DNA from: Haliotis asinina
Taxonomy: Eukaryota
Assembly: GCF_037392515.1 (NCBI RefSeq)
Contig: NC_090285.1
Coordinates: 70,781,515 to 70,845,514, forward strand
DNA length: 64,000 nt
Direction: 5' to 3'
Part shown: piece after piece, positions 28,357 through 42,690 of the stretch
Layout of the letters: every line of letters begins with the position of its first letter
How positions within the stretch are numbered: position 1 is the stretch's first letter
Program-made: the position numbers and the translations under genes
The notes under the pieces: generated by a model
What the model was told of the DNA's origin: nothing
The model's input: the letters and a program-made list of their open reading frames with translations, nothing else
Databases searched by the model: none

Positions 28357-28712
28357 AGTAGTATAGGGAATGGGGGTTTTAAAACACTTTCACAAAAAGT
28401 CTCTACAACGCCTTATTTACTAAATAAGACGTTGGTGGGCCCCTTAGCTCTTGCTACTATTACCCCTACTACAAAAAAGTTGGCGGTAATTACTGTGCCT
28501 TGGTAGGAGGTAACACTGTGCCGTACGGTACGATCAATAATTCTTCTCTTACAAATCCCCTACCCGGCCCACCCCTCAAGTAGTACAAGTTAGGTTCGTC
28601 GGCTTTCATATCCACTTTATCTATGTTGTAAGTTTTGACTGACCATATAGGATCGGTGGCTCGCTTACGGCTATCACCCTCGTGTTCCCCCGGCTGGTAT
28701 AGATACCTCACT
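28357..28712. repeat. Left terminal inverted repeat (contains the integrase 3' coding end)
   Basis: Reverse complement of 42335-42690. Only ~3 substitutions visible (integrase-tail translation differs at 2 of 73 residues). Confidence 0.9.
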
Positions 28713-29458
28713 AGGGCCCTATCTGGTATCTGTTTCTCCTTCCCACGCAATGGAGCGGCCGACTCTGCAACTATTGATTTTAGTTTGATAGCGTCTGCCG
28801 GTTTCTTACCGGTGAGACGGGTGACTTCATGGTTGATTGCCGACACCACCTTAGGTAACCTCGTGACCCATTCAGTCGATCGTTTTCCAGGGGTGACCAT
28901 CTCCCTAGCATACTGATAGCCGAACAAGCGCTCAGCCAAAGTCCTATTAAATCTCTCAACTATGGCTTGGCTGCGATGGGCTCCGGCCGTGCCACGCCTG
29001 ACCTTTGTATCGTGTTTGGCTAGCAGTTGTGACACGGCACCCATGAACTCCCGTCCGGGGTCAACTTGCAGCTCTGTTGGCCACGTCAGCGGGCTGCGTT
29101 TGTATATGCGTTCGAATCCTCTGGCTACCTGGGCCGAATCTTTCGTGGTCAAGGGTTCGGCTTCCTTGTAACGACTGGCTACGTCCACTACGGTTAAGGC
29201 ATACTTGTACCTCTTGTCGTGGGGTAGGAACAGTAGGTCTGCCTGGTGAACGCTATTAGGTATGTTAATACCGAACCTCCTTCTAGGCACGTAGCGTGGT
29301 GCCGGCAAATAGATCTGCCACAGGGCTTGTTTTTCAAGCCACGCTTTGGCTTCCTCCGGGGGTACTCGCGCTATTTTAGCTAGCTTATCTACTGCGCTAG
29401 CTCCTTTCCAGTACCCACGCGGGCTGTAGTAAATAGCCTCAAATTTTTTCATGTCCAT
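28490..29458 (-). CDS. Retroviral-type (rve) DDE integrase, 322 aa
   Basis: Catalytic triad contexts TVVDVASRY, LQVDPGREF, AIVERFNRTL. The C-terminal ~73 aa (SH3/chromo-like) are encoded inside the TIR. Confidence 0.9.
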   Translation of the reverse strand: MDMKKFEAIYYSPRGYWKGASAVDKLAKIARVPPEEAKAWLEKQALWQIYLPAPRYVPRRRFGINIPNSVHQADLLFLPHDKRYKYALTVVDVASRYKEAEPLTTKDSAQVARGFERIYKRSPLTWPTELQVDPGREFMGAVSQLLAKHDTKVRRGTAGAHRSQAIVERFNRTLAERLFGYQYAREMVTPGKRSTEWVTRLPKVVSAINHEVTRLTGKKPADAIKLKSIVAESAAPLRGKEKQIPDRALVRYLYQPGEHEGDSRKRATDPIWSVKTYNIDKVDMKADEPNLYYLRGGPGRGFVREELLIVPYGTVLPPTKAQ

Positions 29459-32400
29459 ACGCGTATGTGTTTATCCCATCAATAGCTATCCAACGTTTCG
29501 TGTCCATAGGCGACAGGGACGTCTTGTTTATAGTCAGTCTGTATATCTTATGCCCATCACTTCTAAGTGTGTTCATTTTATGTCTAAAGGTACGGGTCTT
29601 GAACAGGGCTTCCTTGAATCTGGCGTGTTTGATGTGTTGTTTCACCACATACTTCTTAACCCCCTTAGCCTTCCGGATCTCACTATTGTCGGCTTTCAGT
29701 ATGGAGTACATCTTAGGTCTCAAACCTATGTACTCGGCTATGGGCGTGCCAGCACACTCGTCCTTCATCTTACCTAGGACCTTTTTATTTACCGTACTGT
29801 GTATGGCATGGGTCTTAGGGTAGTCGCTGGTGTCGTATAAATCGAGGTGTTTTTTCATGTCCTCGTACACGTCCTCGGTTCGAATCTCCATCAGCAGGGA
29901 ATCCGTGTCAGTGTACAGCACTTCACACCTGTCGCCGTACTGTTTCTTGAGCTCGTTGTAGTAAAAGTCGTACATCAGGTGTTTGGATAAATCGAGGATG
30001 CTCATCCCCACGTAAACAGGCCGGTTGAATTTTATGTGGCTTTTCTTCATGTGTAGGGCAACCAGGTTGTCTGTGAATATCTTACTACGGTTGAATGCCG
30101 GACTGGCTATCAATCTCCTGAGCTTGTCTTCCTCACTCGACCGAACCAGCTTCACGGTCACGCGTTTCCTCAGGTTCTCCATAGTCTTACCAAACACCGA
30201 GTTGTTCATGAGCTTGTAGAGATTTTTCTCAAAATCACTGGTGGCTTTTTTTCGTAGGTCTGTGTTCATTCTGATGTAGGGCTCCATCCATGGGCTCTGG
30301 TCGAACATGAGCACCCTGTGTATTTTGGTCAGCCTCATACCCAACGACAGGTACAGCTGTAGGTTGCGATAGTGAACGATGTACTTGGTCTTATTCATTA
30401 AGTTAGGCACGAGTTTTTCAACGTCTGTCACACGCCCACCTGACAAGTTATGTTGGTACTCAGACATCCAGTCTGGGTTAACCCTCATACGTTCGGGGGC
30501 CAGGGGGTAGCTGTTGTGCGATGTGTGTAATTCCTTGGGATACTCTAAGTCAACCTCGAGGATATAACCTTTGTTCGAATCTGGTGCAACCCCCGTAACA
30601 TCAACGTGGGGTACCCATTCGAATCCCCCTGTAGGTAGATACTGACTCATGGCCCAGCCGTACAGGTTGTTTGCGTCGAGGTAGAGAATGTGATTGGTTG
30701 GTTTGTTAGGATCGTAACCTTTCACGTATTGATTATTTGCTTTCGCGTATCGTTTGGATGCCATGGAAATCCCACCTCGCAAACCTTTCTCAATGAATAG
30801 GTGCATGTCGTAATCTGTGAGCAATTCCAAATTAACTCCGGTCTTTTTAAGCAAGGCGTCCCACGACAGACCTGGGCTGGTGTAATACCATGCGGGGTCG
30901 AGTTTATACTGCTTGAAACATGTCCGCCTAAACGTTTCAAACACGTCGGCTAACAGCAGTACATCTGTCCTCAAGTACAGGTCGTGATAATCACCCAGGT
31001 TCTTACAACCCAGTTTATTCCATACGTTAGTCGCGTGCGAGTAATCATCTCGTGAGACGGACGCCTCATTCAGCTTGCTATAAAAGCAGTCAATAGGGGG
31101 TAGTCTGGTCTCGGTGAACTTAGCCCAACTATCCATGTACTCATAGGGGTACACACCCTTCTCATAAGCAGGGGTCTAGTCTCGGCGTCTGTGTATCGAT
31201 CGGTGATAGGGAAGGTATTGTTGGCCTTGACCAGACTGTCGAGTGACGACAGGAGGAACTGAAACGAGTCAATGAACCTAAGTCCGTTTAAGCTGAAGGA
31301 GATGTATCTCTCCATGTTGTTGGGGATGCACGTTATATTACCATCGATTTTCGCGATGGCCTGCATGATCAAGTGTGAGTCGTACCCTCTCAAGTTGTGA
31401 AAGACAACGGGGATGTTTATTGTCTTAGGGTTGATTTTAAGCTTGAGGTTGCACGCGTTGTGAGCGGCGCCTCTATACTTACCAGTTATGTGACAGTGAT
31501 CTCTCACCGAATCACCGTTAAGTGGTGAGTCACACACGTGACAGTTAGTGCTACTAGCGTGGGCTAGCCTGTCGACTCGGGTCAGACGCATGGGAGCGAT
31601 TTTATACAATGCATTCCTAATAATTTTTTCTTCCTCCTGCAAACACTTTAGAAACCTTTCAGCCGCGTCAGGCCCCCTATACACTACCGGAGCTTTCGTT
31701 TCCCCGTCACAACGGACGACAATGTATCCAAACGAACAGGCTTTATGCTCTTGTGTTTTGTGGGTAAAGGCACCACTGGGAGCCTCGCCGGCGGCAGCCA
31801 CTAAGGCTTCGAAGTCGGCGTATATGATATAAGGCACAGACATTTGGTTCTTGTGGTTACCGAATTTTAGGATATTATCACCTTCCTTAGGCATGTCGAC
31901 TCGTATGGCCGTCTGCCCCACACCTTGGCAATCATCCCGGTGGGATTCTAATAAATCATCTCGTGTGAAGCCATGTAGGCATCGTTCACAGAAGTGGGTC
32001 TTTTCTCTGTGTGCCGATTGGTCATACAACAGCCTGCTAAAGTGTTTTATCCATGTGTAGTGATACTTGTCACCTCGCTGGATCATGAATATATTGATAA
32101 CGCGAGCGGGGGGTACCCCCCGGCTGACCTTCACTTCGCTGACCCTGTGTACTATTGTTGTGTTACCTTCGTGCCCAAAGACATTTATAGCCAGATTATT
32201 CTGTTTTTCTACTTTAGTGATCTGGGATATGGGGGTGGGTTCATCTATACCATCCCAGTTGAGCCCATCATCCTGAGGATAATTAGAAGGCCTGTTCGGA
32301 TTAGTGTCAGCTGGAAATAAGGCTGACCTGATAGCTAACCTCAGGCAATCGTTTCCTCTATTCTTAACGTTTACTATAGCATGTTTGTTCCTATAGTAGG

Positions 32401-41675: not shown

Positions 41676-42297
41676 ATGGGTCTGTACCCAGTCGTAGAGG
41701 AAGTAGCGAAGACGTTGGAAACCGTAGATGGGTTCCGCTTGAGGCAGTTATGTGATGTGAAACGTCAACTAGAACAAGACCGTGACACGCGGAAAGCACT
41801 ATGTAAAAAGTACAATAGAGCTTTCAATATCGTGGACGGGGTTGACACTACCCTTATGGCAACCAGCATGGGACTGACTAGGGGTGGCAGGTGTTGGGTT
41901 GTTAGCTACCATCGTGGCCGCACCTATAGTGCTAGGTATTGAAATAACGGCAGGGGTGGCAGGGTTGGCAGGGTTGGCGCTTAAGTTAGTATCACGCAGA
42001 CTTAATCGTAAGGCATTGAAACACGACGAGATCAGGGTTCTGGCCGAAGCAAAGCTGAACACAGTGAGTGAGCGAATTTCCACGGCACTCTCTGACAGTA
42101 AGATCTCAGAAGAGGAGTTTCGTTCAATCCTATCTGAACTCAAAAAATATAACGGAATGAAACAAGATATTCGGTCCAAGTCTCGTAAGTCTGCTATCAG
42201 CGAGGACGAGAAAAAAAAGTACATAGAACAGGGGATACAAAAAGCCCAGCAAGCCTTTATTATGAACACCAAAGAGATCGTAGGCGGTTCACGTTAA
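41676..42297 (+). CDS. Hypothetical membrane protein, apparently frameshifted (88-aa + 137-aa ORFs)
   Basis: Second part begins with the hydrophobic MAGVGLLATIVAAPIVLGIEITAGVAGLAGLALKL, then a charged coiled region. Frames differ around 41900. Confidence 0.3.
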
Positions 42298-42334
42298 ACT
42301 GTTTCATCGATATAAACATGACATAGGCCGCCAA

Positions 42335-42690
42335 AGTGAGGTATCTATACCAGCCGGGGGAACACGAGGGCGATAGCCGTAAGCGAGCCACCGATCCTAT
42401 ATGGTCAGTCAAAACTTACAACATAAATAAAGTGGATATGAAAGCCGACGAACCTAACTTATACTACTTGAGGGATGGGCCGGGTAGGGGATTTGTAAGA
42501 GAAGAATTATTGATCGTACCGTACGGCACAGTGTTACCTCCTACCAAGGCACAGTAATTACCGCCAACTTTTTTGTAGTAGGGGTAATAGTAGCAAGAGC
42601 TAAGGGGCCCACCAACGTCTTATTTAGTAAATAAGGCGTTGTAGAGACTTTTTGTGAAAGTGTTTTAAAACCCCCATTCCCTATACTACT
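42335..42690. repeat. Right terminal inverted repeat
   Basis: Contains a 73-codon ORF (42336-42557) identical to the integrase C-terminus except NID/NIN and RGG/RDG. Confidence 0.9.
42336..42557 (+). pseudogene. TIR-borne duplicate of the integrase C-terminal 73 codons (not an independent gene)
   Basis: MRYLYQPGEHEGDSRKRATDPIWSVKTYNINKVDMKADEPNLYYLRDGPGRGFVREELLIVPYGTVLPPTKAQ matches the end of 28490-29458. Confidence 0.85.

Follow-up and report, generated by a model that had tools for sequence, protein, structure and literature searches.

What is the sharply bounded 14.3-kb segment at positions 28357-42690 of a 64,000-nucleotide stretch of the Haliotis asinina genome (contig NC_090285.1; the whole stretch is hereafter the window), and could it still be mobile? 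The segment is very probably one germline-integrated, virus-like element of the Polinton/Maverick class (a polintovirus). Its lineage is compact (~14.3 kb), lacks a recognisable protease and has Polinton-3_NV as the nearest catalogued relative. The class features present are a protein-primed B-type DNA polymerase (pPolB), a retroviral-type (rve) integrase, long terminal inverted repeats (TIRs) with the characteristic end motif, an A32-like packaging ATPase, a double-jelly-roll (DJR) major capsid protein (MCP) and a penton of the PX family. An adenain protease and the OTU-containing polymerase and chromodomain integrase of the adintovirus type were not detected in the Pfam searches. The Polinton/Maverick superfamily has been catalogued since 2006, and the element is a further member of it, not a new type of element, within a Polinton-3_NV-like lineage that is little studied. 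A preliminary description made from the letters alone had assigned the class correctly; the refinement made here is that the element is not of the classical group-1/adintovirus type and falls in a divergent Polinton-3_NV-like lineage.

The limits of the element are defined by its TIRs and a target-site duplication (TSD). Between 27500 and 43500, a repeat finder returned the two arms as the sole inverted pair (361 nt, 98% complementary). Aligned pairwise, the arms agree from base one, AGTAGTATAGGG, except for four transitions at columns 233, 247, 282 and 337, the only mismatches within the first 356 nt. The similarity ceases abruptly at the outer ends, AGTAGTATAG and CTATACTACT. The ends of the element read AGTAGT...ACTACT, the Maverick motif 5'-(AGT)2...(ACT)2-3', which is one of two published vertebrate Maverick end motifs and is accompanied there by 6-bp TSDs (PMC8097293). 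The TSD at this locus consists of five exact bases, TCTCG, with a chance expectation of ~1/1024, and a 6-bp version costs one mismatch. The near-identical inverted repeats and the TCTCG duplication at both ends had been reported in the preliminary description, and both were recovered. The integrase gene extends with its 3´-terminal 223 nt into the left TIR, in the interval 28490-28717, so a non-functional copy of this end is present in the right TIR, in the interval 42330-42557, where residues 249-317 also match 42336-42542. The G+C content is ~0.47 in the element and 0.35-0.40 in the flanks. By self-BLAST, the element has no second copy in the 64-kb window, not even a partial one. An empty site, in which the flanks are joined, would read ...CACTGTCTCGTAACAAG... 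/ ...CTATATCACTGTCTCGTAACAAGCATC....

The 13.6 kb between the arms comprises 14 genes arranged in strand-coherent blocks, several of which overlap at their stops and starts. The penton gene and the gene of a 303-aa protein, for example, share an ATGA at 40057-40060, in agreement with the compact viral packing described earlier. Twelve of the 14 genes are intact. A fully syntenic ~14.39-kb element on an ENA contig (L001), which has ~124-nt TIRs, begins AGTAGTATAGACAATGGGGG and ends ...CTATACTACT, served for comparison; genes other than the two frameshifted ones match those of L001 along their entire length, and a 231-aa gene has no counterpart there. The integrase is 72% identical to that of L001 over its full length, and no Chromo match was found in it with Pfam at E<=1.

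The pPolB gene is read in two frames, in open reading frames (ORFs) at 31070-33172 and 29439-31154. The N-terminal ORF matches Rho_N repeats (1.7e-12), Endonuclease_7 (1.2e-5) and, weakly, the start of DNA_pol_B_2 in Pfam; the C-terminal ORF matches a PHROG DNA polymerase (3.2e-10). PolB is the only element ORF annotated by PHROGs. Compared with the L001 PolB, the frameshift is a 1-nt deletion at ~31159, in which one A is lost (GAGAAAGGG to GAGAAGGG), and putting one A back yields a PolB ORF of 1236 aa. The restored protein contains the exonuclease motifs ExoI (YADFE), ExoII (HNLRGYD) and ExoIII (YLRTDVLLL) and the polymerase motifs A (DANNLY), B (KLMNNSVFG), C (YTDTDS) and KxY (KMY). Rho_N/SAP-like repeats form its N-terminus, and a His-Me (Endonuclease VII-like) finger is located between ExoI and ExoII. 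No OTU domain was detected in the PolB of the window or of L001, whose recovered domains are limited to Rho_N, SAP, Endonuclease_7 and DNA_pol_B_2; PF03175 is recorded on the PolB orthologues of relatives. The second damaged gene (41676-42297) contains a 4-bp tandem duplication of GACT at 41872-41879, visible as four extra bases in the DNA alignment, and a homopolymer sequencing error is an unlikely source of it. The integrase, the pPolB with every Exo and Pol motif, the FtsK/HerA-class ATPase and the two frameshifts of the preliminary description were thus all confirmed.

The virion module was identified by combining sequence, profile and structure comparisons. The packaging ATPase is 69% identical to that of L001. 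The MCP aligns over its full length (418/412 aa) with the MCP of the Repbase element Polinton-3_NV (BLASTP, 33% identity, E 1e-80); the Polinton-3_NV MCP and the penton sequences used for comparison were taken from the supplement of PMC4028283. More than 1761 homologues of the MCP share 60-66% identity with it over the full length, one of which is an Elysia marginata protein named 'Major capsid protein' in UniRef. Since the identity to Polinton-3_NV is only 33% and that to the mollusc-type relatives is 60-66%, the window element represents a distinct sub-lineage. The AlphaFold model of the MCP (predicted local distance difference test score, pLDDT, 59.8; predicted template modelling score, pTM, 0.59) matches DJR capsid proteins of nucleocytoplasmic large DNA viruses (NCLDVs), virophages, adintovirus, adomavirus and MELD virus in a Foldseek search of BFVD. 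The E values of these matches lie between 5e-15 and 1e-8, and their identities are 8-15%, with 10% for the adintovirus match. The penton was recognised through its family profile, which aligns over 217 columns with a profile of 12 published Polinton/Tlr pentons (hhalign 99.6%, E 1.2e-23). The 217-aa ORF itself has no match in Pfam, PHROG or PDB, and the penton and MCP profiles show no signal against each other in hhalign. PDB sequence searches with the MCP, a 420-aa protein of the element and the MCP and penton profiles returned nothing meaningful. As judged from these comparisons, the MCP, the penton and the A32 ATPase are all present in the element. The preliminary description had called the virion module complete; this stands for the three proteins named, and no adenain-like protease was detected.

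Table 1. Features of the Polinton/Maverick-class element in the window, in order of position.
Feature	Position	Strand	Evidence or remark
Left target-site duplication TCTCG	28352..28356	.	same 5-mer at 42691-42695
Left TIR	28357..28717	+	begins 5'-AGTAGTATAGGGAATGGGGG; (AGT)2 Maverick end motif; holds integrase gene 3' end
rve (retroviral-type DDE) integrase, 322 aa, intact	28490..29458	-	Pfam rve 1.7e-10, 41.5 bits vs cut-off 32.6
pPolB, frameshifted	29439..33148	-	Pfam, PHROG, motifs; colinear with intact 1230-aa L001 PolB
88-aa Cys-rich (zinc-ribbon-like) small protein	33209..33475	-	42% identical to L001 homologue
141-aa small protein, hydrophobic N- and C-terminal segments	33495..33920	-	55-71% identical to L001 g46/g111
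~74-aa small hydrophobic protein	33928..34152	-	51% identical to L001 g77
Conserved protein, homology 34476-34892	34383..35060	-	57% identical to L001 g186
A32-like (FtsK/HerA-superfamily) packaging ATPase, 211 aa, intact	35121..35756	-	Pox_A32 1.5e-8, 34.8 bits vs cut-off 22.8
DJR MCP, 418 aa, intact, Polinton-3_NV (PY) type	35728..36984	-	BLASTP, AlphaFold2 and Foldseek
396-aa coiled-coil protein, Gly/Ala-rich hydrophobic C-terminus	36984..38174	+	53% identical to L001 g412
420-aa conserved protein, Pro-rich linker, C-terminal transmembrane helix (tail anchor)	38152..39414	-	ORF, AlphaFold
Penton (single-jelly-roll minor capsid, Polinton PX family), 217 aa	39407..40060	+	hhalign
303-aa beta-rich protein	40057..40968	+	36% identical to L001 g290
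231-aa paralogue of the 303-aa protein	40979..41674	+	no L001 counterpart at position
Membrane/coiled-coil protein gene, ~200 aa, frameshifted	41676..42297	+	L001 g202 tblastn splits between frames 3 and 1
Right TIR	42330..42690	-	ends ...CCCTATACTACT-3'; carries non-functional integrase 3'-end copy
Right target-site duplication TCTCG	42691..42695	.	sequence read

Relatives of the element share its termini and core genes and differ in the replication block. Syntenic relatives of ~14.3 kb were found in mollusc and other invertebrate-associated assemblies, and relatives are located in the Elysia marginata genome and in contigs 0.3-1.6 Mb long. A scan of IMG/VR seeded with MCP-derived patterns retrieved no MCP relatives; taken with the large animal contigs, this indicates that the family is seen mainly as endogenous animal copies. 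The PolB gene is followed by the integrase gene in the same direction in the window, and the two are convergent in L001. They are convergent with their order swapped in L006, a 14.5-kb Joint Genome Institute (JGI) contig that starts with tgcaag followed by AGTAGTATAG and has a perfect 99-nt TIR. In L004 and L005, contigs that exhibit neither TIRs nor circular overlap, the whole block is at the opposite genome end, and in L007 a 1053-aa superfamily 1 (SF1) helicase (AAA_19/AAA_30) takes the place of PolB. A 2.3-kb contig from an independent sequencing run (L003; Logan SRR5986943) has 94.6% nucleotide identity to window 39396-41000 (~1.6 kb), and of its 420-aa gene region, which lies upstream, only 96 nt align, at 88.5%. 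This pattern points to recombination that may have occurred between related elements. The fragment shows that close relatives exist elsewhere; activity does not follow from it.

The terminal 20-mer AGTAGTATAGnnAATGGGGG is conserved in L001 and L006 and is present in 32 JGI metagenome contigs and one IMG/VR contig. In these contigs AGTAGTATAGnnAATGGGGG is located at junctions, with family-like but divergent sequence inward and unrelated sequence outward. The termini (AGTAGTATAGGAAATGGGGG) in nine JGI contigs (L011, L019, L020, L022, L025-L027, L039 and L040) adjoin one outer flank, ccggttaggcgagctaaagcgtt(t/c)a, which may reflect a target that is preferred or repeated, or else the amplification of one insertion. 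Two same-orientation termini, 1.3-1.7 kb apart, occur in each of L025 and L042. In four long contigs (L023, L028, L029 and L036; 31-149 kb, one bioreactor metagenome) the 20-mer has an identical flank (atcgagagcctttgcacgactagaa) and does not continue inward into element-like sequence, so that these are either chance or unrelated occurrences or a different element family.

Several observations weigh against the assignment to a Polinton-3_NV-like polintovirus. The confidence of the MCP model is only moderate. Group-1 Polinton MCPs are not significantly similar to the window MCP (Polinton-1_DR, BLASTP E 0.99), and the hhalign probability of the latter against a five-sequence profile of classical Polinton MCPs is 3.4%. 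Pfam hidden Markov models at E<=0.01 detected no adenain-like protease (Peptidase_C5) in any of the 17 ORFs. The exact TSD is 5 bp long compared with the canonical 6 bp of Mavericks, L001, the one other fully bounded relative, shows no TSD, and the sole close relative found is the L003 fragment. The protease result was the same at E<=1 for selected ORFs, and a structure search with the 420-aa model returned no protease-like fold; with Pfam models and this one structure search, the sensitivity of the survey is limited. An adenovirus-like cysteine protease is present in ~74% of Polintons, and Table S1 of the same study lists Polinton-3_NV with MCP and ATPase and without an identifiable protease (PMC4028283). 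Polinton-3_NV, from Nematostella vectensis, further shares with the window element pPolB, rve, the A32 ATPase, a homologous MCP and integration in an animal genome at ~14-17 kb. The two differ in the PX-type penton, which is clear in the window element and had not been recognised in Polinton-3_NV in the 2014 study (PMC4028283). A classical group-1 Maverick or adintovirus with an adenain protease, an OTU-PolB and a Hexon-type MCP would likewise have pPolB, rve, the A32 ATPase, the DJR fold, a PX-family penton, long TIRs with (AGT)2/(ACT)2, a short TSD and an animal germline location (Kapitonov & Jurka 2006; PMC8502044, PMC8097293). In contrast to this group, the window element has no detectable adenain, OTU or chromodomain, its PolB contains Rho_N/SAP-like repeats together with an Endonuclease VII-like finger, and its exact TSD is 5 bp instead of 6. 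The OTU domain in PolB and the integrase chromodomain have been used to define adintoviruses (bioRxiv 10.1101/2024.03.25.586562). The protease, OTU domain and chromodomain that the Pfam searches failed to detect, together with an MCP unlike Polinton-1_DR and the group-1 profile, largely refute the classical type, which we consider very improbable. Harder to set aside is a chimera outside Polintoviricetes proper, in which an animal-borne Polinton-like virus (PLV) with an Aquintoviricetes-like morphogenetic module has acquired a Maverick PolB-integrase module. PLVs (PgVV/Gezel-type; Aquintoviricetes) and 'meldviruses' share with the element a size of ~14-15 kb, MCP, penton and A32 without protease and exchangeable replication modules (pPolB or SF1 helicase). 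The MCP of Polinton-3_NV was grouped with the PgVV PLV capsid protein (PMC4028283), the top folds matching the window MCP are of the small NCLDV and virophage types with the adintovirus match not ranked above them, and no protease was detected, as is the case for most PLVs. The A32 ATPases of Bivalvia, Hydrozoa and Octocorallia elements are reported in a 2026 preprint to cluster with Aquintoviruses, and the replacement of PolB by an SF1 helicase, as in L007, is a swap described for PLVs and group-2 Mavericks (bioRxiv 10.64898/2026.06.19.733378). However, the penton clearly belongs to the Polinton PX family, and in its termini, TSD, PolB and integrase the element resembles Mavericks. Most PLVs are associated with protists, they often have neither rve nor pPolB, and aquatic viromes are rich in them, whereas the window family yielded no match in the pattern-seeded IMG/VR scan and resides inside animal contigs. 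The chimera is a lead from the literature, and we regard it as doubtful. The element appears to be filed best with the Polinton-3_NV-like lineage, which in current taxonomy might be placed either with group-2 Maverick-Polintons or with the Aquintovirus-linked bivalve, hydrozoan and octocoral elements.

The remaining alternatives concern the state of the copy and the integrity of the assembly. The preliminary description had termed the insertion very recent and possibly of a still-active lineage, which overstates the evidence. The TIR divergence of 4/356 (1.1%) implies that the insertion is not brand new, and as a rough inference its age would be of the order of a million years under typical neutral rates. 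The 1-nt deletion in PolB and the 4-bp duplication in the second gene imply that the copy is no longer autonomous. The same two inactivating indels, one of them in the polymerase, the TIR divergence, the lack of an identical second copy in the window and the absence of the exact window MCP and ATPase from a collection of 15 billion proteins could also signify that the copy is an inert fossil in the genome, that its lineage has lost mobility and that it looks intact only because its age is moderate. This explanation is a serious possibility that we nevertheless lean against: 12 of the 14 genes are undamaged and their starts and stops overlap, the element has retained a G+C content unlike that of the host, an independent run yielded a fragment with 94.6% identity, and the capsid proteins of the family are strongly conserved. 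The difference in G+C content and the frequent occurrence of relatives in 'metagenome' assemblies would also be expected if free viral or contaminant DNA had been joined to a host contig during assembly. The exact 5-bp duplication at both junctions, the unique host-type flanks (satellite and ASCC3 exons on one side, a LINE on the other) and the position of relatives within 0.3-1.6-Mb contigs and the Elysia marginata genome argue against such an artefact. The TSD and the host flanks rule it out for practical purposes, and its probability is negligible.

For the polintovirus, a life cycle can be proposed by analogy. The rve integrase would recognise the conserved termini (AGTAGTATAGnnAATGGGGG) and insert linear double-stranded DNA by a staggered cut, an enzymology taken over from the family; repair of the cut would produce the TCTCG duplication. 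The pPolB, with its Rho_N/SAP-like DNA-binding repeats, would begin protein-primed synthesis at each terminus. A reiterated trinucleotide is required for the sliding-back or jumping-back initiation of protein-primed replication, as in phi29 and adenovirus. The repeated AGT-AGT of the element would fit this type of initiation, which may keep both TIRs identical. Judging by the gene content, the MCP, PX penton, A32 ATPase and small hydrophobic, coiled-coil and tail-anchored proteins may assemble a membrane-containing icosahedral particle without an adenain-type protease.

The other proteins of the element were characterised by comparison with L001 and by structure prediction. The 420-aa protein has homologues in 1739 representative clusters at E<=1e-3. 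Its AlphaFold model, which is based on 55 diverse homologues (pLDDT 89.6, pTM 0.82), comprises a mainly helical globular domain, followed by the Pro-rich linker and a transmembrane helix at residues 396-419, and despite this confident fold no structural match was found. Cys90-Gly91 is near-invariant in this family and His110 is invariant. The 396-aa protein, which has weak coiled-coil Pfam matches only, may serve in the virion as an internal-membrane or tape-measure-like protein. The 303-aa and 231-aa proteins are adjacent paralogues (BLASTP E 3e-13); because L001 has a single such gene, the window lineage has gained a paralogue copy. The 303-aa protein is a candidate vertex or fibre protein, and its N-terminal motif is repeated internally. 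The 88-aa protein has no match in Pfam, and the protein at 34383-35060 has none in Pfam or PHROG.

The chromosomal surroundings are those of a host locus with an ASCC3-like gene, a long interspersed nuclear element (LINE) and satellites, as the preliminary description had it, and the element is integrated between them. Minus-strand exons with a Sec63 domain are located at 18265-18735, 20986-21594 and 21725-22060, and by eye 22804-22995 and 24975-25127 resemble further ASCC3-like exons. The terminal exon matches ASCC3 of many animals with up to 79% identity (Batillaria 71%, Dreissena 67%, fish 66%), in keeping with an animal host that is plausibly a mollusc or another lophotrochozoan. No ASCC3 helicase motifs were found in minus-strand ORF fragments beyond the exon at 24975-25127; as no upstream helicase exons were seen from 25.1 to 64 kb, the element may sit within an intron of very large size or a short way upstream of a gene that is truncated. 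An array of 43 copies of a 40-bp satellite (26235-27947) ends ~400 bp before the left end of the element. On the other side, a LINE with APE (Exo_endo_phos) and reverse transcriptase (RVT_1) domains (43934-46876, plus strand) begins 1.2 kb from the right TIR, with a frameshift between its reverse transcriptase ORFs. Tc1/mariner-like transposase remnants at 1088-1459 and 4667-5224 were recognised by eye and have no Pfam match. Minisatellites are unusually numerous in the window, with 34 Tandem Repeats Finder rows scoring >=200 (for example, 25102-26005, 57805-58938 and 61811-63520). At 6177-7773 on the plus strand, 21/42-bp tandem repeats with a strongly negative GC skew encode heptads of the YSPTSP(R/S) type that resemble the C-terminal domain of RNA polymerase II; this region may represent a POLR2A-like exon, or else a satellite whose reading is fortuitous. 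An uninterrupted Ser/Asp-rich ORF of 580 aa at 59916-61658 on the plus strand has no Pfam match and may be a large host exon.

Polintons and Mavericks are thought to lie at the root of several groups of eukaryotic double-stranded DNA viruses, and to our knowledge no virion has yet been seen for them. A bolder reading of the data is that the element represents a distinct, still-circulating family of protease-less animal polintoviruses, strongly conserved in molluscs and probably cnidarians. Such a family would combine a Maverick replication and integration module with a PX penton and a PLV-like capsid, and the 420-aa protein would be its lineage-specific virion-membrane or entry factor or a replacement for the protease, with Cys90-Gly91 and His110 hinting at a possible catalytic or metal site. 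We consider this reading, taken as a whole, unlikely. The element does not overturn current views. The 420-aa family, with more than 1700 clusters at 50% identity and a confident fold without a match, is a worthwhile structural and functional target, and well-bounded, nearly intact copies such as this one are raw material for the reconstruction of active elements. The combination of a Polinton-type penton, an MCP no longer recognisably similar to those of classical Polintons and a PolB-integrase block that is rearranged or replaced among close relatives provides concrete evidence of module shuffling between Mavericks and PLVs.

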